Of a stretch of DNA of 64,000 bases, positions 2,508 through 52,638 are shown in pieces (positions within the stretch are counted from its first letter, which is position 1; every line of letters starts with the position of its first letter). Below the pieces are notes generated by a model, which worked only from the letters and a program-made list of their open reading frames with translations, was not told where the DNA came from and searched no databases. Position numbers and translations under genes: made by a program. Where the stretch lies: the NCBI GenBank assembly GCA_965262675.1, contig OZ253554.1, forward strand, positions 844,496 to 908,495, given 5' to 3'. The DNA comes from Terriglobia bacterium (GTDB lineage Bacteria > Acidobacteriota > Terriglobia > 20CM-2-55-15).

Positions 2508-5279
2508 ATGTTCACGAAGCTCCACGGAGATTTCATCCGCGCCCTGGTCAGGCGGGACCTGTGGAAGTACTTCACCAATCCCACGGGCTACGTTTTCATC
2601 ACGCTTTTCATTTTTCTGAGCGCCGCCGGCGCGTTCTGGCAGGACCGTTTTTTTCAGGCCAACCTGGCGAACCTCGATCAGTTGAACGCGGTGTTCCCCT
2701 ACCTGCTGGTGTTCTTCATTCCGGCACTGACCATGGCCGTCTGGTCCGAAGAGAAAAAACAGGCAACCGATGAACTGTTGCTGACGTTGCCGGCAACGAG
2801 CCTGGATGTCGTCGCCGGTAAATATCTCGCCGTGCTGGCGGTCTACACGGTATCGCTGATTCTTTCCGCCAGCCATGTCGTGGTATTGCTCTGGCTCGGA
2901 TCTCCCGACCTCGGATTGATGATTGCCAACTACATCGGGTACTGGCTGATCGGCGCCGCGATGATCGGAATCGGAATGCTGGCGTCGTTGCTCACCGCCA
3001 ACGCGACGGTCGCGTTCGTCATCGGCGCCGCCTTCTCGGCGGTATTTGCCTTCGGCTCCCAGGCAATCGCATTCAGCGACACTTTGAGCCGATGGTTTGC
3101 CCCAATCGGCGTCAGCGGATATTTCGAAGACTTCGCGGGAGGCGTCGTCAGCCTGTCGGCGGTCCTGTATTTCGTTTCGCTGGCCGGTGTGTCGCTCTAT
3201 CTGAACGTGCTGGTGCTCGACAGCCGCCATTGGCCGCATCGTGTGGACGGTCTTCCAATGTGGGGACATCACGCACTCCGGGTGGCGGCATTGGCAGTCG
3301 CGGTTATTGCATTCAACGCGGTTGCCGGGAGAGGCGATACCCGCATCGACGTGACCGCGGAGAGGCTGCACTCCCTCAGTTCCGAAACCCGCGGCCTGAT
3401 TGCGGAAATACCCGAAGACCGCCCGGTCTTTGTCCAGGCGTACGTGAGTTCCGAGGTCCCGGAAAGGTACGTCCAGGCCCGGGAGAACCTGATCGGCCTG
3501 CTTCGCGAAATCGACGCGATGGCGGGCGGCCGGGTCCAGGTTCTGCTGGAGGAAACGGAACCCTTCACACCCGAAGCGCGGGACGCGCGGGAGAAATTCG
3601 GAATCGTGCCCCGTCAGATTCCGACTTTGACCAGCGCGCGAACCAGCGTCATGGACGTGTTTCTCGGAGTGGCCGTCACCTCGGGAGCCCGGGAACAGGT
3701 CATTCCCTTCCTCGACCGCGGCCTTTCGCCGGAATACGAACTGACCCGCAGCATTCGCATCGTCGCCCAGACCGAACGCAGAAAGGTAGGTATCGTGGAT
3801 ACCGACCTTCGCATTCTGGGCGGACTCGATTTCGCGACGATGCAGAATTCGGCGGAATGGTCGGTGGTGGCCGAACTTCGCAAGCAATACGACGTCGCCA
3901 CGGTGACTCCGGACGAGCCGATCGACGACGATCTGGACGCGCTTCTCGTCATCCTGCCGTCGTCGCTGACCCAGGAGGAGATGGACCACGTTCAGGCCAC
4001 CATCGAAACAGGCAAACCATCGCTCCTGCTTGTCGACCCCCTGCCAGTGGTCAATTTCGCGCTGGCGCCATCCGAGCAAGGCGCAAACCCCAACCCGCTG
4101 TTCGGAAACACCGGTCCGCCACCGGAAGAAAAAGGGGACATCCAAGCGTTCCTGGCCGATCTCGGCGTCGATTGGAACCCGGCCGAGATCGTGTGGGATT
4201 CGTACAACCCGCATCCGGATCTTGCCCATCTGGCGCCGGAAATCGTTTTTGTCGGCGCGGGGAACGAGAACGAGAACGCTTTTGACGGCCAACACGCGAC
4301 AAGCTCGGCGCTTCAGGAACTGGTGTTGCTCTACTCCGGACACCTCGAAAAGGCACCGAATTCGAATGCCGATTTCCAACCACTGGTGGGATCGGGCGTC
4401 CAGTCGGGATCGCTTCCCTACTTTCAACTGATCCAGCGCACGCTGTTCGGACCTCAGATCAACCCGAGCCCCCCGCACCAACCCGATATGCGCGACTACG
4501 TATTTGCCGCGCACGTTCTTGGCGCCGAAATTGCCGTCGAGAGCTTGACGGACACGGACGACGAAAACGAAGCCGAGAATACCGCCGACTCCGTGGACGA
4601 TTCCGATGACCGGGCGGCAGCCTCCGATAACCAAGATGCGACTGCGCCATCGGATTCAGGTGAAATCAACGTGATCGTCGTCGCCGACGTCGACTTCATC
4701 TCGGAGCAGTTCTTTCAGATTCGGGAGCAGGCGCCGGCGGACCTCAATTTCGACAACGTCACTTTTTTCCTGAACGCGATGGACCTGCTCACCGGCGATA
4801 CCGAGTTCATCTCGTTGCGAGGCAAACGAGGGCTTCACCGGACACTGGAACGGGTTGAAGCGCAGGTCAGCAGCTTTCTCGAAGCCCGGATCGCCGACGA
4901 GGAGCAGGCTGAACTGGACGCCGAGGCCGCACTGTCGGAAGCCCAGGAACGGCTTGACGAAAGGGTCGACGCGGTCCGGCAACGCACGGATCTGGACGCC
5001 CAGACCAAGCAGATCATGGCCCGAAACCTCCAGGAGGTCGAGAATCGGCGCTTCGAAGTGCTTCGAACCAATATCGAGACCGAAAAGGAAGCCAGGATCA
5101 ACGCCAGCGAAGAAAACATGGAGGCGCAGATTCTTCGAATCCAGAACAACATCAAGACCTTCGCCGTGCTGTTGCCGCCACTGCCGGTATTCGCCGTCGG
5201 AATCATGATCTTTCTGCGGCGGCGACAGAAGGAACGCGAAGGGGCGGCCGCGGCCCGAAGGTTCAGGTCGAAATCATGA
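2508..5279 (+). CDS. ABC-2 type permease fused to a GldG-like ABC-transporter auxiliary domain (923 aa)
   Basis: N-terminal polytopic ABC-2 (GldF-like) region followed by a large extracytoplasmic domain, an acidic linker and a C-terminal TM. It sits directly after the ATPase. Confidence 0.75.
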   Translation: MFTKLHGDFIRALVRRDLWKYFTNPTGYVFITLFIFLSAAGAFWQDRFFQANLANLDQLNAVFPYLLVFFIPALTMAVWSEEKKQATDELLLTLPATSLDVVAGKYLAVLAVYTVSLILSASHVVVLLWLGSPDLGLMIANYIGYWLIGAAMIGIGMLASLLTANATVAFVIGAAFSAVFAFGSQAIAFSDTLSRWFAPIGVSGYFEDFAGGVVSLSAVLYFVSLAGVSLYLNVLVLDSRHWPHRVDGLPMWGHHALRVAALAVAVIAFNAVAGRGDTRIDVTAERLHSLSSETRGLIAEIPEDRPVFVQAYVSSEVPERYVQARENLIGLLREIDAMAGGRVQVLLEETEPFTPEARDAREKFGIVPRQIPTLTSARTSVMDVFLGVAVTSGAREQVIPFLDRGLSPEYELTRSIRIVAQTERRKVGIVDTDLRILGGLDFATMQNSAEWSVVAELRKQYDVATVTPDEPIDDDLDALLVILPSSLTQEEMDHVQATIETGKPSLLLVDPLPVVNFALAPSEQGANPNPLFGNTGPPPEEKGDIQAFLADLGVDWNPAEIVWDSYNPHPDLAHLAPEIVFVGAGNENENAFDGQHATSSALQELVLLYSGHLEKAPNSNADFQPLVGSGVQSGSLPYFQLIQRTLFGPQINPSPPHQPDMRDYVFAAHVLGAEIAVESLTDTDDENEAENTADSVDDSDDRAAASDNQDATAPSDSGEINVIVVADVDFISEQFFQIREQAPADLNFDNVTFFLNAMDLLTGDTEFISLRGKRGLHRTLERVEAQVSSFLEARIADEEQAELDAEAALSEAQERLDERVDAVRQRTDLDAQTKQIMARNLQEVENRRFEVLRTNIETEKEARINASEENMEAQILRIQNNIKTFAVLLPPLPVFAVGIMIFLRRRQKEREGAAAARRFRSKS

Positions 5280-6646
5280 GCGAAACACAGAAAACCGCAA
5301 CGTTCGGAGGGGTTGCGCTGGTGTTGGTTGTCGTCGCGCTGCTCGGCACGCCCCAGCGCGCAACTCCCGAAGATTTCCTGGACCGTGGGGAAGCCATTTT
5401 CCCCGATTTTACGGACCCCAATGTGGCTACCACGCTCGAAGTCATCGACTTCGATGAGGCGACCGCCACTGCCCGTCCGTTCCAGGTGAGGTTCAGTAAC
5501 GGGCGCTGGACCATTCCGTCCCACCACAACTATCCCGCCGACGGCGAAGATCGTTTGGCTCGAACCGCGGCGGGCGTGATCGACATTCTCAAGGACGACT
5601 ACCGTTCCGACAACGTGGCCGACCACGAAGCGCTGGGTGTGATTGGACCTCTGGACGACGCGGCCACCAGCCTGACAGGGCGCGGGCAGCGGATCACGTT
5701 GCGGGACGCCGGAAACAACGTCCTGGCGGATCTGATCGTGGGAAACACGGTCGAAGGGCGCGAGAATCTTCGATTCGTGCGCCTACCGGATCAGAAGCGC
5801 GTGTACGTCTCGCGCATGGATCTGGACATCTCGACACAGTTCGCCGACTGGATCGTGCAGGATCTGCTGGAGTTGACCCGCGACGACATTCGCCAAGTGA
5901 CGCTCAAGGACTATTCCATCGACGAACAAACCGGAATCCTCGACAACCGCGACACCTTGATCCTGGACCGGGAACCGGAAGGGGCTTCCTGGACGGCCGA
6001 CCGAATGGCGGACGGCGAAGAGGTGGATATTGCCACGATGAACGACCTTCTCGGGGCCATCGATACGTTATCGATCGTCGGTGTCCGCCCCAAACCCGAA
6101 GGCCTGTCCGAAAGCCTGACGCAGTTGTCCGACGGCCTCAGCATTACCCAGGCCGACCTGCTTTCCCTTCAGAGTCGCGGCTACTACTTCGCCGGCGGCG
6201 GACAGTTGGTCTCGAACGAAGGCGAGCTTGAAGTCCGGACCGGAAACGGAGTGCTCTACAACCTGAGGTTCGGGGAAGTGGTGTACGGCGACGGCGAAGC
6301 CGTCAGCGCCGGCAGCGAGACAAGCGGCGATGCCGAAAGCGGTCCGGGCGAAAACCGCTATCTGTTCGTGACCACGTCTTTTGATCCGGGAACGATGCCT
6401 GAACCGGGCCTGCCCAGGAACACGGACTTTTTGGAAAAAGATGAAAGCGATTGGAGCGATGAGGACCGCTCAAACAAGGAACTGCAGGATGCCCATGACG
6501 AGTGGGCGTCCAACCTCGAAGCCGGTCAACAACGATCCGAGGAGTTGAATACGCGCTTCGCGGAGTGGTACTACGTGATCTCGTCAGACATTTTCGAACG
6601 AATCCGATTAACCCGTTCCGATCTTGTACGACCGGAAGAAGCTTGA
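5276..6646 (+). CDS. DUF4340-like protein, the usual third gene of GldA/F/G-type ABC operons
   Basis: ATGA start/stop overlap with the upstream gene; N-terminal TM helix; operon context. Confidence 0.6.
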   Translation: MSETQKTATFGGVALVLVVVALLGTPQRATPEDFLDRGEAIFPDFTDPNVATTLEVIDFDEATATARPFQVRFSNGRWTIPSHHNYPADGEDRLARTAAGVIDILKDDYRSDNVADHEALGVIGPLDDAATSLTGRGQRITLRDAGNNVLADLIVGNTVEGRENLRFVRLPDQKRVYVSRMDLDISTQFADWIVQDLLELTRDDIRQVTLKDYSIDEQTGILDNRDTLILDREPEGASWTADRMADGEEVDIATMNDLLGAIDTLSIVGVRPKPEGLSESLTQLSDGLSITQADLLSLQSRGYYFAGGGQLVSNEGELEVRTGNGVLYNLRFGEVVYGDGEAVSAGSETSGDAESGPGENRYLFVTTSFDPGTMPEPGLPRNTDFLEKDESDWSDEDRSNKELQDAHDEWASNLEAGQQRSEELNTRFAEWYYVISSDIFERIRLTRSDLVRPEEA

Positions 6647-6679
6647 GCAGCCCGTGGCGGGCCGCTCGGTCCGAAGGAC

Positions 6680-7330
6680 TTGATTCGTGCGGTCATAGAC
6701 CGCCCCTACACACTCCCCCTGTAGGTGCGGTCTACGACCGGACGATTCGGACGATCCGCGCGAACTTGATTCTCTTCGCGAGTGCACCTGTAGGTCCGGT
6801 CTACGACCGGACGATTCGAAGATTCTTGATTCGAGCGGTCACAGACCGCTCCTACACACTCCCCCTGTAGGTGCGGTCTACGACCGGACGATTCGGACGA
6901 TCCGCACGAAGTTGATTCTCTTCGCAAGTGCACATGTAGGTCCGGTCTACGACCGGACGATTCGAAGATTCTTGATTCGAGCGGTCACAGACCGCTCCTA
7001 CACACTCCCCCTGTAGGTGCGGTCTATGACCGCACGATTCCCGCACGAAGTTGATTCTCTTCGCGAGTGCACATGTAGGTCCGGTCTACGACCGGACGAT
7101 TCGAAGATTCTTGATTCGAGCGGTCACAGACCGCTCCTACACACTCCCCTTGTAGGTGCTGTCTACGACAGCACGATTCCCGCACGAAGTTGATTCTCTT
7201 CGCGAGTGCACATGTAGGTCCGGTCTACGACCGGACGATTCGAAGATTCTTGATTCGAGCGGTCACAGACCGCTCCTACACACTCCCCCTGTAGCGGTCT
7301 ATGACCGCACGATCTCGACCGCACGATCAC
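6680..7330. repeat. BIME-like tandem array (about 4.5 copies of a roughly 140-bp unit) built from palindromic REP-like elements (core TGCGGTCTAYGACCGCA)
   Basis: Units repeat at 6826, 6971, 7111 and 7251. Each unit has an approximately 80-bp sub-element containing an inverted REP pair and an approximately 60-bp sub-element containing a single REP. The listed ORFs 6502..6870, 6706..6933 and 6852..7046 are artefacts of this array. Confidence 0.85.
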
Positions 7331-7356
7331 CGCCCCGCGGCCGCGGGGCGGTTTGT
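7330..7356 (+). terminator. GC hairpin ccgccccgcgg ccgcggggcgg followed by tttgt at the end of the repeat array
   Basis: Perfect 11-bp stem seen in the sequence. Confidence 0.4.
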
Positions 7357-7364
7357 CCCGTCAA

Positions 7365-7390
7365 TCCGATTGTGCGATATTGCACAATCG
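7365..7390. promoter_or_regulatory. Perfect 11-bp inverted repeat ccgattgtgca(atat)tgcacaatcgg, a candidate operator upstream of the amidohydrolase gene
   Basis: Palindrome seen about 80 nt upstream of the 7472 start codon. Confidence 0.35.
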
Positions 7391-7471
7391 GATATTGAAG
7401 CCCGAAAAGGGAGCGCCTTGGCGGCCCCGGGCAGAACCCCGCGAAGTTCTGCCCGGGGCTGCCGGATCCAC

Positions 7472-8407
7472 ATGAGTATCGAACCCTACGTCAGGCAGGA
7501 CCCCAATCCCGCGCCGCTCGCCTTCACGATGCCCGAGGGCGCGATCGACGCCCACATGCACGTGATCGGCCCGTTCGACCGATTTCCTCTCTCGCCAACG
7601 ACAAAATACGAACCGTTCGCCGCGACCTGGCGGGAACAGAGAGAAATCCTCATCGAAAAGATGGGATTCTTCGGTTACGTGGTGGTGCAGGCCACCTGCC
7701 ACGGTACCGACAACCGCGTCGTCGTCGATGCGCTCGAGCACATGGAGGGCCGAGCGGCCGGCGTGGTCAGCGTCACCGAGGACGTCACGAGGGCAGAATT
7801 GAAGCGAATGCACGATGTGGGAGTGCGGGGCGTGCGCTTTGCTTTTCTGCCCCATATCGCCCGCACCAAGACACCGTCCGATGTCATCCGGAGGATCGCG
7901 GAGCGGATCGAGCCGTTCGGGTGGCACACGGACTTGTATTTTTTGCCCGAAACGTTTGAAACGATGGCGCCTATGATCCAGGAGTTGCCGACACCGGTGA
8001 TCATCGACCACATGGGACGACCCGACGTCACGATGCCGGTCGAGAACAACGAATACTTTCAACGGCTGTTGAAACTGGGCTCGAGCCGTGACGGGATATT
8101 CTGGAAGGTCACCTCTCCGGACCGCTATACACGATCCGCACGACCGGAAGACTGGCCGATCGTGCTGCCCTTTGCGCATGCGTTGATCGAGCACTTCCCC
8201 GGCAACGTCATCAGCGGAACGGACCGGCCCCGCCCCAACATGAATACCGTTATCGTGACGGGCCGGGGGGATCCACCCAACAAGATGCCGAACGACGGCG
8301 ACATCGCCAATCATTGGATCTGGCCGGCCGCGCGCGAGGATCCAGACATCCTGAAGCAGATTCTCACGGTCAACCCACGCAAGCTATACGATTTCAGGGA
8401 GTTCTGA
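7472..8407 (+). CDS. amidohydrolase-2 family metal-dependent hydrolase
   Basis: N-terminal IDAHMHVIGP metal-binding motif and TIM-barrel amidohydrolase-like length. The start was moved to the internal Met because the upstream part of ORF 7301..8407 lies in the repeat array. Confidence 0.7.
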   Translation: MSIEPYVRQDPNPAPLAFTMPEGAIDAHMHVIGPFDRFPLSPTTKYEPFAATWREQREILIEKMGFFGYVVVQATCHGTDNRVVVDALEHMEGRAAGVVSVTEDVTRAELKRMHDVGVRGVRFAFLPHIARTKTPSDVIRRIAERIEPFGWHTDLYFLPETFETMAPMIQELPTPVIIDHMGRPDVTMPVENNEYFQRLLKLGSSRDGIFWKVTSPDRYTRSARPEDWPIVLPFAHALIEHFPGNVISGTDRPRPNMNTVIVTGRGDPPNKMPNDGDIANHWIWPAAREDPDILKQILTVNPRKLYDFREF

Positions 8408-8886
8408 TGCCCCATCTGCGACTCGAGGTGCCCGAAGAGTGGCTCCACGATGATTTCGTCCGGAAAACGGGTTTCGACGCCCGAAAACTTCTGGACCGTC
8501 TGGTGGATGTCGTTTGCGGCCTCAAGATGGAGAGTGCCGCGGATACCGGCGCCGCCACTCCCGCGAAACAACCGGAAATGGTCCCTTTGATCAACAGGAA
8601 GAACCTGAAACACGCCTTGATTCCCGTCCATCATTCCGGAGTCGCGGGCGAGGGTTCAATGGGATTTCTTCACGCCGTCCTTTCGGCGGGCAACGACACG
8701 CCGGGAAGGACTGCCGCGGTGCGGCGAAACGCGGCCGAAGTCCTTGGAGACGAAATCGACCATTTTACCGATGGGTTGCCGGGCCTGGCGTCGGTGACGG
8801 TCCACGTCCAGGATATTGACCGGGACCGGGGTTACACCACCACGGCGTCGCGCAGGAAAAGGCGGGAACGAGAGGCGAACCAGTAG
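8407..8886 (+). CDS. small cytoplasmic protein, possibly a 5-carboxymethyl-2-hydroxymuconate isomerase-like tautomerase
   Basis: Starts MPHLRLEVPEE..., resembling the N-terminus of the CHMI family; start overlaps the upstream stop (TGATG). This is a weak assignment. Confidence 0.35.
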   Translation: MPHLRLEVPEEWLHDDFVRKTGFDARKLLDRLVDVVCGLKMESAADTGAATPAKQPEMVPLINRKNLKHALIPVHHSGVAGEGSMGFLHAVLSAGNDTPGRTAAVRRNAAEVLGDEIDHFTDGLPGLASVTVHVQDIDRDRGYTTTASRRKRREREANQ

Positions 8887-31334: not shown

Positions 31335-32372
31335 TCAACTCCCGGTGCCAACGATGAACGCGCCCGGGTTGCCGACGCTGGACCACCCGCCCCGGCCGCC
31401 TTCGTAGTTTCTCAACGTAAAGTCGGGCCTTTCGGAGGGGAGCAACTCGCGGCGGTGCACCCGCTCGCCGGAAAAGACCACCTGGGACGAACCGAGCGCT
31501 CCCCCCCAGATGCCGGAAACCGTGCTGTCGCCGGCGCTGACGAAATGGTCGTGCGTGACGTTCAACTCGAAGCCGCTGAAGTCCTTCCGCGTCACGAAGT
31601 TGGCAACGCCAGCGACCGCGTCCGACCCGTAGGTCGCCGCGGCGCCTTCCTTCAGTACCTCGATCCGATCGATGGCGACCGCCGGGATGGCGTTGATGTC
31701 GACGAATCGGCCTCCGACCAGACGCGCCGGCACGTATGTCTGCCGGCGGCCGTTGATCGATACGAGAGTTCGCGACGCGCCGAGTCCGCGCAGGTTGACG
31801 TTTGAAATCGTCTCGGTGAGGGTAGCGGGCTGGTCGGAATTGTACCAACTGTTCCGCTCGCCGATGACTCCGTGGCTGGCGCCGATGTTCCTGAAGAGGT
31901 CGACGAGTTGGGCCGCCCTCTGCTCCTGCAGCGTTTCACGGCCGACGACGGTGACCGCGTGCGGCAGGTTGATGGCGGGCGCCTCGATCGCCGTGCCGGT
32001 CGCCACCACGGAGATCTGCTCGGCGAACGCTCCGATTCTCATTTCGACATCGAGCGCGGTCATCGCCCCCTCGGCCACCAGTACTCTCTCCCGCTCGAGT
32101 AAGGCGAAGCCGGGCAGATTGAAACTCACGGTGTAGGAACCGGCCGGCAACGAGACGGAGTAGGCCCCGTCCCCGCCGGTAAGGACGATGGAGGGCGCCT
32201 CCAGGTTGGGGCCGGCGATTTCGACCGTGACGCCGGGCAGCACGGCGCCGGTGGCGTCGCTGACGGAACCCGCAACACCAGTGTCCTGCGCCAGCGCCGC
32301 TGCGGGCGCCAGCCACAGAGACGCGAAGACACCCGGATAGACCGATCTTTTTATTTTATCGAGTAGCGTCAC
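31335..32372 (-). pseudogene. TonB-dependent receptor truncated after the plug domain (345 aa; barrel missing)
   Basis: Signal peptide, carboxypeptidase-regulatory-like region and plug motif IEVLKEGAAATYGSDAVAGVANF. Stops about 600 aa short of a complete receptor, 70 nt before the BCCT start. Confidence 0.65.
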
Positions 32373-32776
32373 TATCGATCTCCGGACAGGTATTCATCCC
32401 GTTGTCCAGTCCCCGCACAGACGACTGTCTCGCGCGTGGGTTCGATCTCGCGGAAGTTCTCTCCGTCTTTGGGCCGTCCATTGGTAAGGAGTATACGGTG
32501 TGTGAGTTGTAAGCGCCGGTGAGGTTCAGCGCGTTCCGAGTCGGTCAGTTCAATGGTGGCGACCGGCCGTGGCATTCCTGAAGGATAGGACGCCAAACAA
32601 CTTACGTCAAATTCAGGAACGCTGACGGCGGAGTTATACGACTTGCGAATCAGATGCGACACCACGTTGGTGTCTAACAGCACGACCATGGCCCCGGGCC
32701 CAATCGATGCGAGGCGGTTCGCGCGCGTGCTCGGACGGCGACGATGATTACGATCTTCAACCCGGCGTGTGTTCAA
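32372..32776 (-). pseudogene. degenerate PIN-domain (VapC-like) toxin remnant
   Basis: MVVLLDTNVVSHLIRK is the canonical VapC N-terminus, but the remaining 100 aa lack the PIN acidic residues and core. Confidence 0.35.
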
Positions 32777-32965
32777 AAAAATTCACTTTTGGGTGATCGT
32801 TCACATTCCGCGGGCCGTCCTTTCGGATGACCCGATCTTGTACAGGCCGATCTTCGACGCGACCGAGGCCATCGCCACTTCAATCTGCCGCAAATTCGCT
32901 GCGGTCTGCTCGTCGACCTGTCTCGCGCAGTGGCTGATGCCGACGTAACCTATGTTTCATAATAT

Positions 32966-32998
32966 TCATTGTTTCCCGCATGCCGAAACACTAATATA
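32966..32998 (+). promoter_or_regulatory. sigma70-like promoter (TTGTTT, 17 nt spacer, TAATAT) ending 2-3 nt before the ATG of the 33000 gene, implying a leaderless transcript
   Basis: Read directly in the AT-rich divergent intergenic region 32780-33000. Confidence 0.4.
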
Positions 32999-32999
32999 A

Positions 33000-34112
33000 A
33001 TGGAACACTATTCGCGACAGAGAGCCCTTATGCCTGTAGGGAACAAACAGCAGCCCACCGGAATACAGATCGAGCGCCAGATCGAGCGATTTCTGGCTGA
33101 GCGAATTCCGGCCGGCTGGTCACTCCAAGCCCGGCGAACCGAAATGCTGGCCGGTCGTTACAGTGTGGACCTGCTGGCGGAGATCGCGTCACCCGACGGC
33201 GGGACAGCCGTCCTTGCCGTCGAGATCAAACGAAATCTGGAGCCACGCGACGTCCTCCAGGCAGTCGAGCAGATTTCGATGATCACGGCGAGCGCATTGC
33301 CTCGTGCCGTGCCTGTCGTGGCGGCCGCCTACCTCGCCCCTCGCACCCGTGCCCTGCTTCGTGATCGGGGTGTCGGCTACCTCGATACCACGGGCAACGT
33401 CCGTATCGAAATCTCTACGCCTGGACTGTTCATTTCTACCGACGGGGCCGATCGCAACCCCTGGCCAAGGGATCACAAGCTCCGGTCCCTGCGAGGTCCG
33501 GGTGCTGCCCGGGCCATGAGGGCCATTATCGACACATTTCCTCCATACGGTGTCCGCCAGTTGGCCCAGTCGACCGGAGCGTCGGCACCGACCCTGTCCC
33601 GCGTGCTGGACTTGCTCGAACGCGAGGCAATCGTGACCCGTGCACGCGGGGCCGTATCGACCGTCGATTGGCAGGGCGCCATTCGCCGGTGGGCCGAGGA
33701 CTACGACCAGACCGATTCCAACACACCAACCACGGTTCTCGAGCCACGGGGTCTGCCGGCCCTCGAAAAGAAGCTCCGCGCGAAGAAGTTTGAGTACGCT
33801 GCCACCGGCGCCCTTGCATCTCAGCGATTCGATCCCCTCGCGCCGGCACGGCAGGCGGCCATCTACGTCACCGACGCGCCAAGGTCCATCGACCGCCTGG
33901 ATCTCCGCGAGACCGAAGCCGGTGCCAACGTGGTGCTCCTCGAGCCTCTCGATCCGGTCGTCTTCGATCGGACGGTCGAGCGCGACGGCCTTCTTTGCGT
34001 CGCTCCCAGCCAGCTCGCCGTGGACCTGCTGACCGGACCGGGTCGGGAGCCGTCACAGGGCGAACAGATGTTGAAGTGGATGGAGAAGAACGAGCATGTC
34101 TGGCGGTCCTGA
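33000..34112 (+). CDS. PD-(D/E)xK nuclease-like plus winged-HTH protein (370 aa), first gene of a translationally coupled pair
   Basis: D...AVEIKR (D/EIK) motif in an alpha/beta N-terminal domain; HTH-like GVRQLAQSTGASAPTLSRVLDLLERE; overlaps the next gene by 17 nt. Confidence 0.5.
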   Translation: MEHYSRQRALMPVGNKQQPTGIQIERQIERFLAERIPAGWSLQARRTEMLAGRYSVDLLAEIASPDGGTAVLAVEIKRNLEPRDVLQAVEQISMITASALPRAVPVVAAAYLAPRTRALLRDRGVGYLDTTGNVRIEISTPGLFISTDGADRNPWPRDHKLRSLRGPGAARAMRAIIDTFPPYGVRQLAQSTGASAPTLSRVLDLLEREAIVTRARGAVSTVDWQGAIRRWAEDYDQTDSNTPTTVLEPRGLPALEKKLRAKKFEYAATGALASQRFDPLAPARQAAIYVTDAPRSIDRLDLRETEAGANVVLLEPLDPVVFDRTVERDGLLCVAPSQLAVDLLTGPGREPSQGEQMLKWMEKNEHVWRS

Positions 34113-34941
34113 CCCGCTCTACGTTCGCGCCCGCACTGCACTGCTCGACGCCGCCGATGCGCTGGCCGAACAGTTCGACGCTGTCGTGCTCGTCGGTGCT
34201 CAGGCCATCTATCTACACACCGGCGACGCCGACTTCGCTGCCGCCGAGTACACGACCGACGCAGACTTCTGCATCGCGCCGGCGGATCTGCGCGAAACGC
34301 CGCTTCTCGCCGAATTGCTCGAGACGCACGGGTTCTCGCTCAGAGAACATCCCGGGGCGTGGATGAGCCCGGATGGGATACCCATCGACCTGATGGTTCC
34401 CGAAACGCTGGCCGGAGCCGGTTCCAGGGGAGCTCGCCTTGGACTCCACGGCAATAGAGCGGCAAGGCGAGCCACGGGCCTCGAGGGAGCACTGGTTAAC
34501 CGGGAGCGCATGGAAATCACGGCACTCGATCCGGGCGTGGAGCGATCATCTGCAATGCTGGTCGCCGGACCCGCGGCGCTGCTCGTGGCAAAGGTCCACA
34601 AGATCGCCGAGCGCACCGGGACTCGTGACCGAGTCAGGGACAAGGACGCGTTGGATGTCCTTCGTCTCCTGCAGGCGATTGACACGCCGACGTTCGCGGC
34701 AGGCTTGGCGCAACTTGCGAGCCACGAGATAAGCGCGCGGGTCACAGCCGAAGCCGTGTCCCAGCTCGCGCCCTTGTTTGGCAACCCAGACTCCGTGGGC
34801 GTCACCATGGCGATCCGCGCGGCCCGTGCGGGCACCGAGGCCGACATGATTGCCGCTTCGTTCGGTGCGCTCGTGTCGGATCTCCTCACTGCCTCGACCG
34901 TCGGACGCTCCACCAACCCGTCGAACCCGTCGGCGAGGTAG
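34096..34941 (+). CDS. nucleotidyltransferase-fold-like protein (AbiEii-like?), second gene of the pair
   Basis: VVLVGAQAIYLHTGDADF...TTDADFCI resembles a minimal NTase G-x(n)-D-x-D signature; 281 aa. Confidence 0.4.
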   Translation: MSGGPDPLYVRARTALLDAADALAEQFDAVVLVGAQAIYLHTGDADFAAAEYTTDADFCIAPADLRETPLLAELLETHGFSLREHPGAWMSPDGIPIDLMVPETLAGAGSRGARLGLHGNRAARRATGLEGALVNRERMEITALDPGVERSSAMLVAGPAALLVAKVHKIAERTGTRDRVRDKDALDVLRLLQAIDTPTFAAGLAQLASHEISARVTAEAVSQLAPLFGNPDSVGVTMAIRAARAGTEADMIAASFGALVSDLLTASTVGRSTNPSNPSAR

Positions 34942-36071: not shown

Positions 36072-36416
36072 CTACAAATCCAGGACCTGCCGGAGTCCGG
36101 AATCGACGCGCGCCATGAGTTTCCGGGAAATTTGTCCAACCCGATCGGAAAGACAGGATTTGTCGAGAGTCACGATCTGCATGATGTTGGCGACAGAGTC
36201 TTGCGGGAGCCCGGTGCTTGTCGCTGGAAGCAGGGTGTTCCCGGGAGCGCCGAGTAGGCGCGTATTCGACGTGAGGATAACACCAAGGATTGTTCTCAAC
36301 CTGCTTCGATTGAAAGCATCCGCCTGAACGATGAGGACGGGGTGGCGAAAACCAGGTTCCGATGCTCGCGGAACATCCAGATCAGCCCACCATACCTCGC
36401 GGCGCGCAACTACCAT
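36072..36416 (-). CDS. MazF/PemK-family type II toxin (endoribonuclease)
   Basis: RREVWWADLD...GFRHPVLIVQADAFN...ILTSN matches the PemK/MazF fold signature. Confidence 0.7.
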   Translation of the reverse strand: MVVARREVWWADLDVPRASEPGFRHPVLIVQADAFNRSRLRTILGVILTSNTRLLGAPGNTLLPATSTGLPQDSVANIMQIVTLDKSCLSDRVGQISRKLMARVDSGLRQVLDL

Positions 36417-36646
36417 TTGCCAGAGCTGACGCTTCGAGCCTGGGCGGTCCTCAACGCCGGATCAAGGCCGTTCGATTCATCGGCGAAAACCTCGTTTAGC
36501 TTAGACGTCACATCCTCGTCACGGTGTTTCGCCAAGTATTCAGAAACCGCTGTGGCGTACAATTCGCTCCTCGACACTCCTTGCCGTTCCGCCAATTCGT
36601 CAGCAGACAGGAACAGTTCGTCCGGTAGTGAGATTGCTGTTTTCAT
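36410..36646 (-). CDS. ribbon-helix-helix (CopG/MazE-like) antitoxin
   Basis: MKTAISLPDELFLSADELAERQGVSRSELYATAVSEYL; overlaps the toxin by 7 nt. Confidence 0.65.
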   Translation of the reverse strand: MKTAISLPDELFLSADELAERQGVSRSELYATAVSEYLAKHRDEDVTSKLNEVFADESNGLDPALRTAQARSVSSGKW

Positions 36647-37395: not shown

Positions 37396-37701
37396 GTGTC
37401 TATAGACACATTACATTCATGGGTGATACGGAGCTTCCGACATCGCGGACTCAAGCGCTTCTACGAGCGCGGAGATCGAAGTCTCATTCGTCCCGATCTG
37501 CACGACCGGGTGGAAGTGATGCTCGCCCAGCTCGATGTCGCCGGCTCCCCTGAATCCATGCGCCTTCCCCAATACCGGCTGCACAGCCTCAAGGGAAACC
37601 TGAAGGGCTATTGGTCGGTCACTGTGAGGGCAAATTGGCGCATCATTTTCCGCTTCGAGAACGGGAACGTTCACGACGTGGAGTTGATCGACTACCACTG
37701 A
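37396..37701 (+). CDS. higB: HigB-family (RelE-fold) type II toxin
   Basis: IRSFRHRGLKRFYERGD...LPQYRLHSLKGNLKGYWSVTVRANWRIIFRFENGNVHDVELIDYH matches the plasmid-maintenance-killer HigB pattern. Confidence 0.75.
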   Translation: MSIDTLHSWVIRSFRHRGLKRFYERGDRSLIRPDLHDRVEVMLAQLDVAGSPESMRLPQYRLHSLKGNLKGYWSVTVRANWRIIFRFENGNVHDVELIDYH

Positions 37702-37717
37702 TGAAAGGAGAAACACC

Positions 37718-38011
37718 ATGCCGATGAAGAACCCGCCGCACCCCGGCAAGGTGGTACGCATATCCTGCCTGGAGCCGCTCGGCCTCAGCGTCACCGAAGG
37801 CGCGAAAGTCCTGGGAGTCAGCCGCCAGGCGCTCTCGAACGTCGTGAACTGCCGCGCCCGCATCTCGAGCGACATGGCGGTGCGACTGGCCAAAGCCTTC
37901 GGTTCGACCACGGAAACCTGGATACGTTTACAGGCCGCCTACGATGTCGCGCAGGCCCAAGCTCGAGAGGATGAGATCGAAGTCGAGCGGTACGAGCAGC
38001 AGCCGGCATGA
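37718..38011 (+). CDS. higA: HigA antitoxin (XRE-family HTH)
   Basis: NPPHPGKVVR...LGLSVTEGAKVLGVSRQALSNVVNCRARISSDMAVRLAKAFGST.ETWIRLQ. Confidence 0.75.
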   Translation: MPMKNPPHPGKVVRISCLEPLGLSVTEGAKVLGVSRQALSNVVNCRARISSDMAVRLAKAFGSTTETWIRLQAAYDVAQAQAREDEIEVERYEQQPA

Positions 38012-46671: not shown

Positions 46672-49600
46672 TCAGGAATTATGCGGATTAAGAACATCCT
46701 CCAGACGCTCGCGTGCCGCTCGGCTGAGCCGGGCGATTCCTAACGCCCGTGCAAGTTCAACTACATCGCCATTGAGGTCTAGTGTCTCGTCAATGTGTTG
46801 CAATTCTTCCGCGCAGATGTGCTCGGGTTTGCGCATCTCCTCGTCTCGGTTAGCATAGCGCGCGGGGACCAACCGATTCTTGACCGTGCCCTTTCGCCAA
46901 AAGAAGAGGCCGACATCCTCGTTCGTGCGCCCCCGCCGGTTCTTGGCGAGGCGCAACACCAGATTGCGAATCTGACGTCCGGCGCGTTGGAAATCGTGAT
47001 GACGGGCAATTCGACGGCTCAGAATATCCTCATGGATCGGCCCTTCGATATCGACAATGTGATCGATCATCGCTTTAAGCCTCCGTTCGTACTCCTCGTC
47101 GTAGAAGCGCGATGGATCGGGCACAAACGCACCACCAGCAAGACGACTTTTGACGTAACGATGGGTTTCCTCCAGAGCGGTCTCGCTCGAAAAGACGAGA
47201 GACGGCTGCTCCTCGGCGGAATTTACCTGGGCGGCCTTTGCGGTCGCACCCTGGAGGCGGTGCCCCTCATTTCCCGCACGTATAGAGTAAGTCCGTTTGA
47301 CGTCGCGTTGCCGCGAGGACGTCTCCTTGGAGCCGTTTTCGTAAGGTAGGACGCCATCGACGTCTATAGGGCTGTGATCTTCAGAAACCGGCTCTTTGCG
47401 CTCCCCGTCGTCTCTTGCAGCTTTGCGGCGCTGTCTATCCTCCTCCAGATGCTCCCTCAACTGGCGATCGAGCTTTTCGAGCGCCCCCACCTTGTTGATC
47501 CACCAGTCCGTTGACCATACGCGGAAGAGGGTCCAACCGAGTCCCTCCAGCACTTCCTGACGGATCTTGTCGCGTTCCCGGGCGAAGGCGGAACTGTGGT
47601 ACATCGCCCCGTCGCATTCGACGCCCGCGAGATAGACCCCGGGCTCGTCTGGATGGACGACTCCGAGATCTATCCGGAACGAACTGACGCCGATCTGCGG
47701 GTGGATCGTCCACCCTTTCTCACGAAAGGACCGTGCAACGGCAATTTCGAACGGCGATTCGAAATCTCCAAGCGAACCGTGAACACCTGCGCCAAGCGCT
47801 ATCGGCCCGCGTTCGGCATATTCAAGAAAATGCTTCAGATCCTTCACCGCTTCCGCGTTCGTGCGGGAAAGGTCGATCTTATCGGGGTGCAGTGTCGCGA
47901 AAACGACCATCTCAGAACGCGCTCGAGTCAATGCAACATTGAGGCGCCTTTCGCCCCCCTCCCGGTTCAAAGGACCGAAATTCATAGACACATGGCCGGA
48001 TTGGTCCGGCCCATACGTAACGCTGAAGAGGATCACGTCGCGTTCGTCGCCCTGAACAGTCTCGAGGTTCTTGACGAATACCGCCTCCTGATGGTTCTCA
48101 TCGAAAGCCCATTCGATGCTCGGATTGGCGGCCCGCGCCCTATCCAACAGATCCTCGATTAGCGACTGCTGTTCTGTATTGAAAGTGACGACACCGATGG
48201 TGGCCTGTTTCACCTCAGGTTCGTCCGAAGTGAGGCGCCGGACGACCTCAGCGACGATCACTTTCGCCTCTCGTTCATTGTGTCGCGCCTTGCCACGGGC
48301 ATAAAACCCGTCGGGCCGGACCAACCGAACGCCGGAATCCGGACGGATCGGCGCCGGGAAGGTGATGAGGCTGTTGTCGTAGTAGCGACTGTTCGAGAAG
48401 GCGATCAAGCTTTCCCGGCGGGAGCGATAGTGGAGATTGAGCGTGCATTCCGGGATGCTGGAGCTTCGCAATTCGTCCAGGATACTCTCCAGATCACCGT
48501 CATAGTCGATGTCACCGTCAGGATCGTCGTCAGCGCGGTTGAAAAAGTTGGTCGGCGGCATCTGCTTCGGATCGCCTGCGACAATCACCTGCATCCCGCG
48601 CGCTATCGAACCCACGGCATCCCAGACCGTGATCTGCGACGCCTCGTCAAAAATCACCATGTCGAACAAGGCTTGTTCCGCCGACAGATATTGCGCGACG
48701 GAAAGCGGCGACATCATCAGACAAGGGGTGAGCTTGGTTACCACATCGGGTGCCTCTTGCATCAGTTGGCGTACCGGCTTATGACGCTTTTTCTTGTTGA
48801 TCTCGTGCCGCAAGACGCCCCATTGGGAACTTTTCTTCACATCATCCTGAACCGGGATCTGGCCGCTCAGTCCGGCTGCGATATAGGCTGCCGTAATCTT
48901 TTGGAAGGATGCGTCGATCTGCCGGAACTTCTCGATCGTATCCATATGTTCGGCGGTCGAGAATGTACGTAGCACCTCGTCTTCGCCAATCACCATAGAC
49001 GACCACCAAGCGCAATACGCGGCCTCAAACGTCTCCAGAATCTCGTCAATGGGAACACGCCCCTTCTCGATCCCGTCTACCAGCGGTGCAAGGTCGAGAT
49101 CCATCGCCTCTGTCCGCCGCTTTCGCCAGGCACACCAGTCATGCAACTCCGCTCGCCGGGCAATGATCGTCTCGGCAGTCTCACACAATGCCTCAAGCGC
49201 CCGGTCTTTCTCCGAAAAAGCCTCGCGCACGACGCGTCCGGCGCGCTCTTCGAAGGCCCGGCTTGCACTCTGCAACGTGTCGAGTGTCTTCAAATACTCC
49301 GCTGCCGCGCGGCCCACAATTGCTTCCGGGGCAAGCAGGTCATTGCCGTCCTGCAGAAGCATCCGCACCTTGCGACGCACCTCCGCTAGCGCCTGCGCAT
49401 CGTCGGCGAGCCATCCGACCGATGTGCGCGCTCGATCGCCCAGATCTCGCAACGCCTGCGCGGCCTGCGGATCGGTCGTGTGCGCCTCCCACTCCTTGAG
49501 CGAGGAAAGTTGCTTGTCGAGGCGATCGATCGCCTCGCCCTCCTCGCGAAGTGAGGTCAGCAACGGGGCGTCGCGCGCAGGATTCGGCTCGCCTCGGGCC

Positions 49601-52600
49601 CCACCTTTGCGCATCGATTTGATGACGGCACGCTGGGCGAATATTTTTTTGGGCCACCAAGTACGTTCCGCCTCTGCCCAGTGCAACGCGACCTCTTGAC
49701 CGTCGGTCGCCCTCCAGGCCATCGGATCATAAGGACAGCTCAACCGAGCCTGCGCCGCAGCATAAGCTTTGAGGCGGTGAACTGCCTCTTCCAGCGCTTC
49801 GATCCGGTCCTGACCGTCTGGCTCCAGCGCGTAGGCGGTCTGTCTACGATATGACTCCGTCAACACGCGCGCGAGATCAGCGAGCGCATCGAGGCGTCTC
49901 ATGGTCTGGTCGGGCAGCGTCAAACCGACGGTCTCACAAAGCGCGCGCGCAGCGTGATCGGCAGCCTTCGCGGCGGCGGAGAGCGCGGCAGCGCGGCCCA
50001 CCAGTTCACCCTCCCACTGCGGTGTCCATCCTGAGCTCGCTACGAGTTGCAAAGGGCTTTCCGTGATCTCGCCCACAGCATGGGCCTGAATCTTCAACAT
50101 TTCGGCCGCCGCACGCATCGCGGCGAGTTGCGCCTCGTCATGCTGATCGGCTTTCGGCCAAGAAAGATTGATCCGCGAGCCCAACTCTTCGTCGCGCACC
50201 TTCACGCCAATCGCGTAGTGGGCGGTTAGACCGTTCCGCCGCCTGCGGTGCATATGATCAATGAATCGATTGAGTTGGTCGCGTAAGATGCGTAGTCGCT
50301 CCGCCTCCTTCTCCCAAACCTCGGCCGTGCGGCTTTTTCCAGTGGACCAAGCGGTTTCGAGTTGATTTAACACGTCCGCCTTTTTGGCCTTGTTGGAATG
50401 GAGTTCCAGACAGAAGCGCCCCAGTCCGATGTCATCGAGACGACGGTAGACGACGTTGAGCGCCGCCGTCTTCTCCGAGACAAAGAGAACCTTCTTTCCC
50501 TTTCCGAGAAAGTGCGCGATCAGATTGCCAATAGTCTGGCTTTTGCCCGTGCCGGGCGGGCCGATGATTATGAAGTCCTTGCCCCTATCCGCCGTCGCGA
50601 CCGCCGCCATCTGGGACGAATCCGCCGGCAGCGGGACAAGCAGTTCGGAAGGCTTATAGTCGCGATCGATCCGATCCGTCTCGACGAAGGCGATCTTGCT
50701 CCCATAGGCCTCGCGCGGGGTATCGATCAGGTGCCGGACAACCGGATTCTCCCGCAGTGCATCCGTCCGATCGATCAGATCCTTCCACATCAGGAACTTC
50801 GCGAAGGAAAAATGGCCGAGCACCACGTCCTCCACGACCTCGAAGCCCGGCGCGTCCTTGACTGCCTTGCGCACCTTTTTCCAGATACCATGGACGTCGA
50901 CCCCACTTTCGTCCTCGGGAAGTGCTCCGTCAATGCCTTTGATATCGATTTCGAAATCCTTACGCAGCATTTCGAGGAGGGTGGTGTTAAAGCGCGGCTC
51001 GTCGTCATGCGCAAGCATCTTGACGCCGCTACGGACCGACTGGCGCTGCAGGGTGACGGGCATCAAGATGAGGGGGGCACGGAAGCGATGGTCTTCCTTT
51101 TCATCCCGCTTCCAGAGGAGGAAGCCGAGGGCGACGTAGAGCGTGTTCGCCCCGCCCTCCTGCAGCGCTGTCCGGGCCTTGCGGTAGATTTCGACAGCGC
51201 GCTTCGAGAGGTCCTCTGGTGGAAGATCGACCAACACTTGACCCCGATTCAGCGCGTCGCGGGCGTACTCCTCTGTGATTAGTTCGCCGGTGCGTTGTTC
51301 ATGGAGATCAACGTCCTGTGCTTGGGAAGTTGCCTGCCGCAAAACCTGGATCGAGATCTTGCTCCCATCTGCAAGTTTGTCTTCGAGTAGCCCTGGATCG
51401 GGGCAGACGATCTTCAGGCTTGCCTTGGTCGATTTGTGATTCAGAAGTGGATTGCGCGCGGAGAGGTCAAGCAGCTTGCGTTGCCAACGCTCCAAACGAC
51501 CGGCCGGAGTCTCCGGCTTCTGTTCCGTGACGTCCTCGTCGAATCGGGGCAACGCCGGCGCCTCCTCCATTGGAAGCTCGACGGCCTCAATCCCCTGGCC
51601 GTCTGGACCATTCGTAGGCGTCTCCCCTTTCAGCCCCAGCGGCAAAATCCGATGCGCACGAGCGCGACGAATGTCGACCGCGACGCTGAACGTTTGGTCG
51701 CGCTCTGGGGCGACCTGCTCCATTGCGCGAGCAATCGCTTTCGAAAAAGGCGGCGCCGGATACGAAGTGGCCAGCGTCGTTTCAATCAGGATGAGTTCCT
51801 GCAATTGATAGCGCTTGCGGAGCGTCTCGGCGTCATCAATCACAATGGTGGTGAGCTCTTCCGGTTGTAGCCAGACGCCGACCATGGCATGGTCCTTCGG
51901 CATCGCGATGATGGGATTGAGGCCCGCTTGCTCCAACACAGAGGCGAACAGCATCGTGGTGTCGAGACATGTTGCAATCTTGCGCTCCCAGATCTGGCTT
52001 GGCAGGCGGATTTTCTGGCCGTCGCGCTCAAAGCTGGCCGGGGGAACAGCATAGACGATCCCGAGATTGGCGATTGCCGTGTAGATAGCTGACGCCATTT
52101 CCCAAATCCGGTGCCGACTGCCGGAGCTATAGCCGTCGAGGCCGTCGGGCTTGCCAGCTTGGCGCAGAAGCTTTGAGGCCTTGTGCAAAATCCGGTCAAC
52201 TGCCGGGTCATTCGGCATCGAAAAAGCTGCCAAAAGCTCCGGCATATAGCCCGAACCACCCCATTCATTGAAAGCGAGAATCTCGACGGGCTTAGTCACC
52301 TCGGTCAGCACCTCACCCCCAGTCTCGACTCGGATCGAGACCGCCCCACGCAGTGAGTCGGAGAGGTCAAGCAGGAAACCGCCATCGAGATCGATATCAC
52401 GATGCCTGACCGAAACAACCCCAGCCGCGGCTATGCGATCGATGCGCCAGATCTTCGGCTTTATGAAGCCCGGATTCGCACTAAGCGTTACCAGAACGTC
52501 GTCGAGACGATTCTCCTCGTCCAGGTTTTCAATTCGGAGATCCCGCAACACGGGATATGCACTTTGGTGGCAGGCGAAATTCAACTTCGCCGCAATTTCA

Positions 52601-52638
52601 CAATGAATTGCGACGGTTCGATCTTTGGCGTCGTCCAT
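46672..52638 (-). CDS. 1988-aa DUF4011 / Upf1-like SF1 helicase (AAA_11/AAA_12) / REase (Vsr/DUF559-like) / DUF3320 protein (Hhe-like architecture)
   Basis: Walker A IIIGPPGTGKSQTIGN, motif VI VALTRARSEMVVF, endonuclease core GVECDGAMYHSSAFARERDKIRQEVLEGLGWTLFRVWSTDWW, and a C-terminal DUF3320-like tail. Confidence 0.85.
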   Translation of the reverse strand: MDDAKDRTVAIHCEIAAKLNFACHQSAYPVLRDLRIENLDEENRLDDVLVTLSANPGFIKPKIWRIDRIAAAGVVSVRHRDIDLDGGFLLDLSDSLRGAVSIRVETGGEVLTEVTKPVEILAFNEWGGSGYMPELLAAFSMPNDPAVDRILHKASKLLRQAGKPDGLDGYSSGSRHRIWEMASAIYTAIANLGIVYAVPPASFERDGQKIRLPSQIWERKIATCLDTTMLFASVLEQAGLNPIIAMPKDHAMVGVWLQPEELTTIVIDDAETLRKRYQLQELILIETTLATSYPAPPFSKAIARAMEQVAPERDQTFSVAVDIRRARAHRILPLGLKGETPTNGPDGQGIEAVELPMEEAPALPRFDEDVTEQKPETPAGRLERWQRKLLDLSARNPLLNHKSTKASLKIVCPDPGLLEDKLADGSKISIQVLRQATSQAQDVDLHEQRTGELITEEYARDALNRGQVLVDLPPEDLSKRAVEIYRKARTALQEGGANTLYVALGFLLWKRDEKEDHRFRAPLILMPVTLQRQSVRSGVKMLAHDDEPRFNTTLLEMLRKDFEIDIKGIDGALPEDESGVDVHGIWKKVRKAVKDAPGFEVVEDVVLGHFSFAKFLMWKDLIDRTDALRENPVVRHLIDTPREAYGSKIAFVETDRIDRDYKPSELLVPLPADSSQMAAVATADRGKDFIIIGPPGTGKSQTIGNLIAHFLGKGKKVLFVSEKTAALNVVYRRLDDIGLGRFCLELHSNKAKKADVLNQLETAWSTGKSRTAEVWEKEAERLRILRDQLNRFIDHMHRRRRNGLTAHYAIGVKVRDEELGSRINLSWPKADQHDEAQLAAMRAAAEMLKIQAHAVGEITESPLQLVASSGWTPQWEGELVGRAAALSAAAKAADHAARALCETVGLTLPDQTMRRLDALADLARVLTESYRRQTAYALEPDGQDRIEALEEAVHRLKAYAAAQARLSCPYDPMAWRATDGQEVALHWAEAERTWWPKKIFAQRAVIKSMRKGGARGEPNPARDAPLLTSLREEGEAIDRLDKQLSSLKEWEAHTTDPQAAQALRDLGDRARTSVGWLADDAQALAEVRRKVRMLLQDGNDLLAPEAIVGRAAAEYLKTLDTLQSASRAFEERAGRVVREAFSEKDRALEALCETAETIIARRAELHDWCAWRKRRTEAMDLDLAPLVDGIEKGRVPIDEILETFEAAYCAWWSSMVIGEDEVLRTFSTAEHMDTIEKFRQIDASFQKITAAYIAAGLSGQIPVQDDVKKSSQWGVLRHEINKKKRHKPVRQLMQEAPDVVTKLTPCLMMSPLSVAQYLSAEQALFDMVIFDEASQITVWDAVGSIARGMQVIVAGDPKQMPPTNFFNRADDDPDGDIDYDGDLESILDELRSSSIPECTLNLHYRSRRESLIAFSNSRYYDNSLITFPAPIRPDSGVRLVRPDGFYARGKARHNEREAKVIVAEVVRRLTSDEPEVKQATIGVVTFNTEQQSLIEDLLDRARAANPSIEWAFDENHQEAVFVKNLETVQGDERDVILFSVTYGPDQSGHVSMNFGPLNREGGERRLNVALTRARSEMVVFATLHPDKIDLSRTNAEAVKDLKHFLEYAERGPIALGAGVHGSLGDFESPFEIAVARSFREKGWTIHPQIGVSSFRIDLGVVHPDEPGVYLAGVECDGAMYHSSAFARERDKIRQEVLEGLGWTLFRVWSTDWWINKVGALEKLDRQLREHLEEDRQRRKAARDDGERKEPVSEDHSPIDVDGVLPYENGSKETSSRQRDVKRTYSIRAGNEGHRLQGATAKAAQVNSAEEQPSLVFSSETALEETHRYVKSRLAGGAFVPDPSRFYDEEYERRLKAMIDHIVDIEGPIHEDILSRRIARHHDFQRAGRQIRNLVLRLAKNRRGRTNEDVGLFFWRKGTVKNRLVPARYANRDEEMRKPEHICAEELQHIDETLDLNGDVVELARALGIARLSRAARERLEDVLNPHNS

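Follow-up and report, generated by a model that had tools for sequence, protein, structure and literature searches.

The stretch of Terriglobia bacterium DNA analysed here—64,000 nucleotides (nt) of contig OZ253554.1, referred to as the window in its full length—carries two overlapping genes on its forward strand, A and B. We consider it probable that they form an autoregulated two-gene operon of the AbiE/MenAT toxin–antitoxin class, more precisely of the COG4861–COG4849 (MenA2–MenT2-like) type. Hereby, A would be the repressor-antitoxin and B the toxin, a nucleotidyltransferase (NTase). As judged from sequence, the pair is a divergent subfamily of this known class and, hence, an addition to it. 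The COG4861–COG4849 pairing itself is already known: work from 2014 counted it among two AbiE-type pairs with a high association (PMC3985639), and a 2026 AbiE preprint returned to it (bioRxiv 10.64898/2026.01.19.700257). Mycobacterium tuberculosis MenA2–MenT2 represents this class (PMC7450476), and MenT1 is a COG4849 member (bioRxiv 10.64898/2026.01.19.700257). The two genes in the window comprise the following elements.

33019..33024 (+): AGAGAG, a weak Shine-Dalgarno (SD)-like element 5 nt 5' of the gene A start codon, at a position shared with relatives
33030..34112 (+): gene A, predicted repressor-antitoxin of the AbiEi_2/COG4861 type, 360 amino acids (aa) in three domains, from homologue lengths and profile comparison
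33057..33440 (+): N-terminal domain of A with PD-(D/E)xK (NucS-like) fold, aa ~10–137
33168–70, 33222–24 and 33228–30 (+): the triad of A, D47 (GAC), E65 (GAG) and K67 (AAA)
33492..33704 (+): winged helix-turn-helix (wHTH) of A, aa ~155–225
33705..34109 (+): C-terminal AbiEi_2-type domain of A, presumed toxin-neutralising, aa ~226–360
34082..34112 (+): coupling region, with GGAG at 34082–85, 10 nt before the gene B ATG at 34096, and the gene A TGA ending at 34112
34096..34941 (+): gene B, presumed toxin, a DUF1814-superfamily NTase (MenT/AbiEii-like, NTP_transf_8/COG4849-like) of 281 aa
34252..34266 (+): catalytic motif II of B, T53-T54-D55-A56-D57, with D55 and D57 invariant in 98 sequences

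An earlier note on this DNA had described two open reading frames (ORFs) with a 17-nt overlap, and both exist in the ORF listing and in the raw sequence (33000..34112 and 34096..34941, both +). The 370 aa it gave for the first protein has to be reduced to 360 aa, starting at ATG 33030: homologues are 359–360 aa long and begin with MPxxDKQPPT, at Met11 of the 370-aa frame, and coding conservation is absent among related loci in the 30 nt ahead of 33030. The 370-aa ORF from 33000 is hence an ORF-finder artefact. At the position of the AGAGAG, relatives bear GGAG or GAAGGAGG, followed by a conserved ATG/TTG. The translational coupling that had been claimed fits the geometry of the overlap, which is identical—17 nt—in most of the 78 related loci for which ORFs were extracted. 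No intrinsic terminator was found 3' of gene B. Inside gene A, the window bears an exact 11-nt tandem direct repeat at 33066–33088 (CAGATCGAGCG twice), which encodes IQIERQIER and is probably trivial.

The assignment of B starts from its motifs. The NTase-like pattern reported for it (G-x(n)-D-A-D / T-D-A-D) is indeed present as VGAQ...TTDAD within the stretch VGAQAIYLHTGDADFAAAEYTTDADF. Motifs I–IV of DUF1814 proteins were defined by Dy et al. 2014, with motif III reading KLxAaxxR in COG4849 and motif IV +DxxD (PMC3985639). In B, motifs I and II (V33-G34-A35 ... D55-A56-D57, with a spacer of 19 residues) are invariant in the 98 aligned sequences, departing from the DUF1814 form hG[G/S]-x(9-15)-DhD in the Ala after the Gly and in the length of this spacer. 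Motif III reads K166VHKIAER173 and motif IV K183DALD187, with K166, K169, R173, K183, D184, and D187 invariant in the same alignment. Position 53 lies two places ahead of the first catalytic Asp and is occupied by Thr in 97 of the 98 sequences and by Ser in the remaining one. From its place in the motif, T53 is seen to occupy the phospho-acceptor position, the equivalents being S78 (with D80) in MenT3 and S67 (with D69) in MenT4 (PMC7450476), T39 in MenT1 (PMC11375011), and T65 in AbiEii (bioRxiv 10.64898/2026.01.19.700257).

The AlphaFold model of B is confident (predicted local distance difference test, pLDDT, 86.5; predicted template modelling score, pTM, 0.87) and shows a two-lobed, MenT-like fold with MenT1 as the best structural match; a Foldseek search with this model gave weak generic NTase matches only. 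Relatives of B at 50–55% identity that are likewise paired with A lead to a named family: six of the ten scanned pass PF12281 NTP_transf_8 (28–38 bits vs a cutoff of 26.3), and PF08843 AbiEii is matched below its cutoff by 10 of 41 B relatives. As a separate observation, the PADLOC candidate defence model PDC-M21B is weakly matched by 4/41 B relatives (best E 1.9e-4), which is the sole link to a defence catalogue.

For A, a restriction-endonuclease-like D...EIK core with a subsequent helix-turn-helix had been proposed, and the protein does read VDLL ... AVEIKR with the helix-turn-helix after it. The N-terminal domain combines the alpha-beta-beta-beta-alpha-beta core of the PD-(D/E)xK fold with the D...(D/E)xK triad, and its fold resembles that of Can2, Card1, NucS, HamA, Cap4, and restriction enzymes. 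The AlphaFold model of A is usable at residues 10–137 and 157–225 only. Among 108 representatives of the family, D47 is conserved in 86%, E65 in 75%, and K67 in 76%; the complete triad is retained by 70 of them (65%) and by the window's own A protein. D119 within a YxDTTGN hairpin is 100% conserved in the same set, W30, P27, and G122 are conserved in 98–99%, and T121 and N123 in 94%. Because the triad is lost in some representatives while the active site of B never varies, the system does not everywhere depend on catalysis by A.

The link of A to the AbiEi antitoxins comes from its relatives. PF09952 AbiEi_2 matches the C-terminal region of A in 21 of 44 locus-derived relatives and in 28 of 108 cluster representatives; two loci (L070 and L080) lie above the gathering score of this model, and the window's A is without an AbiEi_2 match. 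The Pfam models AbiEi_1, _3, and _4 match neither A nor its relatives. At 50% identity, the A family comprises 3014 clusters for a threshold of E <= 1e-3 and 566 if E <= 1e-30 is required. A tblastn search against plasmids gave distant homologues with 26–29% identity over residues 22–360, which carry the NCBI name 'type IV toxin-antitoxin system AbiEi family antitoxin', each adjoining a 'nucleotidyl transferase AbiEii/AbiGii toxin family protein'. One of them is the overlapping pair of 359 and 289 aa on Rhizobium rhizogenes pTiCA74_95 (WP_174044870/WP_174044872), whose antitoxin passes PF09952 at 29.7 bits. An hhalign comparison of the A family profile with this antitoxin gave a probability of 99.5% (E 1.6e-22) over 320 columns. 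Since this alignment of an annotated antitoxin includes the N-terminal D...ExK region, the large, nuclease-like first protein is, as far as profiles tell, the normal architecture of this AbiEi-like antitoxin branch.

The AbiE relationship that had been suggested is thus borne out by the AbiEi_2 and NTP_transf_8 matches in relatives and by the profile alignment to an AbiEi antitoxin. The suggestion of an undescribed variant is not: the large antitoxin layout corresponds to the known COG4861/AbiEi_2-type partner of DUF1814 NTases (PMC3985639).

The two genes are conserved as a unit, as had been asked of a genuine module: by tblastn, gene A was located immediately 5' of gene B in 82 of 83 related loci, and the sole exception is a locus cut by a contig end. 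The genes flanking the pair vary from locus to locus. A search of 5.8 billion proteins returned 3137 homologues of gene B and 1084 of gene A. The best 120 of each are 66–97% identical and mostly metagenomic; the source names shown for them are all 'hypothetical protein', and most carry none. When one genome was scanned for each GTDB species, relatives of B were seen to be encoded in 549 stretches, the best 80 of which belong to Vicinamibacterales, Latescibacterota, Acidimicrobiia, Rubrobacter, Thermoanaerobaculia, Binatia, Anaerolineae, a Gloeobacteraceae cyanobacterium, Spirochaetia, and metagenome-assembled genomes (MAGs) of Gamma- and Deltaproteobacteria. Homologous pairs are also found on Streptomyces and Rhodococcus plasmids, with most copies being chromosomal. 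The module is mobile across phyla and reaches plasmids, in line with a toxin–antitoxin or abortive-infection element.

Some individual loci deserve mention. The ENA contig L001 is almost identical to the window (A 99%, B 97%). In L061, a decayed B (6001–6827) stands beside an apparently intact A, where a 148-nt gap precedes the B match and residue 55 is the first to be matched; in L086, the Rhodococcus opacus PD630 plasmid, 63% of B is matched at ~4080–4630 and no B is annotated downstream of an A that likewise looks intact. Loss of the toxin ahead of the antitoxin would be expected to leave such a pattern. Gene B is followed in L002 by a 640-aa protein without Pfam family (6815–8737), and in L003 (6855–10854) by a 198-aa protein and then a 1128-aa PDDEXK_1/AAA_11/AAA_12 helicase-nuclease. 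Because this arrangement is not conserved, these genes were left out of the module.

Upstream of gene A, an alignment of related loci reveals a further conserved element.

32954..33006 (+): promoter-operator region with four 5-bp half-sites, symmetric about ~32980
32954–58, 32971–75, 32985–89 and 33002–06 (+): the half-sites GTTTC, GTTTC, GAAAC and GGAAC
32969–74 and 32992–97 (+): -35-like TTGTTT and -10-like TAATAT, 17 nt apart and enclosed by half-sites

The half-sites are spaced 17-14-17 from centre to centre. The layout common to the related loci reads GTTTC-ATAA; cTTGTTTC-N9-GAAACA; a -10-like TAcAAT; and tGAAAC/GGAAC; and continues with about 25 nt, GGAG, and ATG/TTG. Counting scores of at least 13/15, four half-sites at this spacing are present in 53 of the 77 sequences compared, comprising the window and 76 related loci, and in none of 385 shuffles. 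By lineage, the half-sites are of the GTTTC (32), GTTCC (15), GTCTC (3), or GTTGC (3) type, and all four switch in concert between lineages. At the beginning of the recognition helix of the wHTH, residue 188 tracks the half-site—Thr with GTTTC/GTCTC, Ser with GTTCC, and Tyr with GTTGC—in a raw covariation that is uncorrected for shared ancestry. This residue of A (nt ~33591–33593 in the window) marks a candidate specificity determinant. From these patterns, A would be expected to bind the putative four-site operator.

The promoter hexamers had been noticed before, and they are present with their 17-nt gap at a position conserved in relatives; as a match to consensus they fare less well, with 7/12 consensus positions and a silent consensus scan. 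As they lie within the conserved operator, they are nevertheless supported as a real promoter and point to autorepression by A. The leaderless mRNA that had been proposed along with them is rejected because ATG 33000, 2 nt past the -10 hexamer, belongs to the fourth half-site (aTGGAAC). Elsewhere, this site takes the form CTGAAAC, GTGAAAC, or CGGAAT, and the start codon is not kept. The conserved start at 33030 lies 32 nt past the end of the -10 hexamer, with the SD-like element in between. The mRNA is, hence, predicted to have a leader of ~25 nt and not to be leaderless.

Two further observations concern these upstream regions. L025, on a Latescibacterota chromosome, and L032, on a 'Gammaproteobacteria' MAG contig, are near-identical for >100 nt upstream of the operator, ~130 nt upstream of A, which suggests that a larger element was transferred very recently or that binning went wrong. 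L040 and L042 both lie on OZ242033.1 (Ca. Aldehydirespirator sp.) and represent two copies of the pair in one chromosome, with inner sites of the GTTTC type.

A comparison with known systems places these elements in context. Like the COG4861–COG4849 and Rhizobium pairs, the window bears a ~360-aa wHTH antitoxin directly upstream of, and as often in these pairs overlapping, a DUF1814 NTase of 230–290 aa. Identity of the window's A to the annotated members of this type is, however, only ~26–29%, and the window proteins fall below the thresholds of all Pfam, NCBIfam, and PADLOC models. For M. tuberculosis MenA2 (Rv0837c)–MenT2 (Rv0836c), the likeness is one of class description and not of direct sequence alignment; in the literature searched on Rv0837c/MenA2, a description of its domain architecture was not found. 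With AbiEi–AbiEii (Streptococcus agalactiae/Lactococcus, COG5340–COG2253), MenA3–MenT3, and MenA4–MenT4, the pair shares the bicistronic order with the antitoxin gene first. The antitoxins of AbiE and MenAT3/4 have a wHTH, a C-terminal domain for neutralisation (presumed in A), and inverted repeats in the promoter in common with A, and AbiEii, MenT3, and MenT4 share with B the DUF1814 motifs I–IV and the Ser/Thr two residues before the catalytic Asp.

The differences lie mainly in A. While AbiEi, MenA3, and MenA4 are two-domain proteins with an N-terminal wHTH, here an extra PD-(D/E)xK domain of ~140 aa precedes an internal wHTH (aa ~155–225), which sets A apart from the canonical AbiEi layout (COG5340, ~200–300 aa). 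In B, the spacer between motifs I and II is 19 residues long versus 15 in AbiEii. MenA1 of the MenA1–MenT1 system (Rv0078B–Rv0078A) is, with 68 aa and without a DNA-binding domain, unrelated to A (PMC7450476). NucS/EndoMS, AF1548, and the Can2 nuclease domain share both the fold and the D...ExK triad of the N-terminal domain of A. Unlike NucS, A scores 23.5 bits against a cutoff of 252, is devoid of the NucS N-terminal domain, and bears a triad that a third of the family can do without. This PD-(D/E)xK front domain of the antitoxins and the covarying four-site operator are both undescribed in the literature searched.

Taken as an AbiE/MenAT-class operon, the pair would most likely work as follows. 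B would block translation by adding nucleotides to tRNA 3' ends, in analogy with MenT1, MenT3, and AbiEii; extension of tRNA 3' ends by MenT toxins has been reported (PMC7450476). The winged helix of A would bind the dyad operator over the -35 and -10 elements and thus repress the operon. The AbiEi_2 domain at its C-terminus would neutralise B, plausibly via induced auto-phosphorylation at Thr53, a mode of action described for MenA1/MenT1, MenA3/MenT3, and AbiEi/AbiEii (PMC11375011, bioRxiv 10.64898/2026.01.19.700257). For the PD-(D/E)xK domain, dimerisation on the dyad operator or binding of nucleic acids might be the most likely role, although this is speculative; equally speculative is that A might retain DNA cleavage wherever a lineage has an intact D...ExK triad, the window's included. 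The GGAG within the end of A and the 17-nt overlap would couple translation of B to that of A.

We regard it as rather unlikely that the N-terminal PD-(D/E)xK domain, which A has in common with the large class of AbiEi_2/COG4861-type antitoxins, is a working nuclease or a DNA-end/structure sensor, which would make A a bifunctional switch. Such an A would sense or cut invading nucleic acid and, by doing so, release the NTase toxin or stop phosphorylating it. If true, this would be a built-in trigger-sensing domain for AbiE/MenAT-class systems, one that is undescribed in the literature searched.

Several results weigh against the assignment of the pair to an active toxin–antitoxin system of this class. 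Searched against Pfam, NCBIfam, and PADLOC, the window's A gives sub-threshold wHTH and NucS matches only, and its B gives no match, for Pfam even at E 10. Because the window proteins match no model, the family assignment is built on the fold, the motifs, transitive matches in relatives, and one profile comparison. The C-terminal ~135 residues of A are poorly modelled (AlphaFold pLDDT 30–55, with a shallow input alignment), so that the likeness of this part to AbiEi is one of sequence profile. For B, the hhalign match to the Rhizobium AbiEii-family toxin is weak (34%, E 4e-4). A PDB sequence search with four family profiles returned no MenT, AbiEii, or AbiEi chain. Among the IMG/VR viral contigs scanned, no relative was found. 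On the biological side, M. tuberculosis MenT2 showed no toxicity in M. smegmatis or E. coli (PMC7450476), and no MenT2 phosphopeptide was found (PMC11375011). MenT2 is the only COG4861-partnered toxin studied so far.

The same MenT2 data—a protein harmless in two hosts (PMC7450476) and omitted from later biochemistry as its activity was not detectable (PMC11375011)—would also fit a B that is a regulated RNA-/tRNA-modifying or otherwise non-lethal NTase, with A as its dedicated repressor, confined to the control of transcription and of B activity, and no role in addiction or abortive infection. That most copies of the pair are chromosomal points in the same direction. However, the catalytic residues of B are all invariant, and the pair is patchily distributed across phyla at 70–97% identity, in varying contexts and also on plasmids. 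In the window, it sits beside MazEF and HigBA, and the decayed B beside an apparently intact A in L061 and R. opacus PD630 is what is expected when the toxin is lost first. We hold this non-toxic alternative to be distinctly unlikely. Highly improbable is a reversal of roles, in which A would be the effector, an active PD-(D/E)xK nuclease against invading DNA, and B a regulator or sensor that, for example, nucleotidylates A or makes a signal; the resemblance of the A N-terminal domain to the defence and repair nucleases listed above and the triad that is intact in the window and in 65% of the representatives speak for it.

Three further candidates were dismissed. The MNT/HEPN comparison suggested in the earlier note expects a minimal NTase of ~100–150 aa with a HEPN RNase and was rejected on fold ranking: B is a two-lobed, MenT-like protein of 281 aa, and neither A nor B has a HEPN match. 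Fold ranking also led to the rejection of a CD-NTase signalling reading. A C-terminal domain of A that is a degenerate copy of the NTase was considered as well, and an hhalign comparison of A with B found nothing.

With the AbiE/MenAT reading, a very large, unnamed protein pair is now placed in this toxin–antitoxin class. As the Pfam, NCBIfam, and PADLOC models miss the subfamily, it will be under-represented in toxin–antitoxin and defence surveys that cover Acidobacteriota, Latescibacterota, and Acidimicrobiia. For the MenA2–MenT2 type, the least understood branch, two testable features emerge: the nuclease-fold front domain of the antitoxin and the four-site operator that covaries with a recognition-helix residue. 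Neither of them changes the basic picture of how AbiE/MenAT systems work.

The surroundings of the pair had been described as an island of degenerate PIN, MazEF, and HigBA modules. MazEF and HigBA do adjoin the pair and make up a small toxin–antitoxin cluster with it, but as intact-looking genes with full-length Pfam matches; the 'PIN' ORF is without a Pfam match.

36072–36416 (-): MazF/PemK, full length, Pfam E 3e-23
36410–36646 (-): ribbon-helix-helix antitoxin, overlapping the MazF gene
37396–37701 (+): HigB, Pfam E 9e-22
37718–38011 (+): HigA, HTH_3

The ORF in question (32372–32776, -, 134 aa) has a PIN-like N-terminus, VVLLDTNVVSHL (LLDTNVV-like), and may be a PIN remnant; the public gene call for it in L001 is 105 aa long and belongs to no Pfam family. 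The GC content in the intergenic and MazEF/HigBA parts is 0.55–0.60, below that of the flanks, and no tRNA genes were found in the window. At 31335–32372 (-), a TonB-dependent-receptor-like gene of 345 aa bears CarboxypepD_reg and Plug only, without a beta-barrel, and is possibly truncated, with a BCCT transporter gene directly after it. Further along, the window holds an ORF of 1988 aa at 46672–52638 (-).

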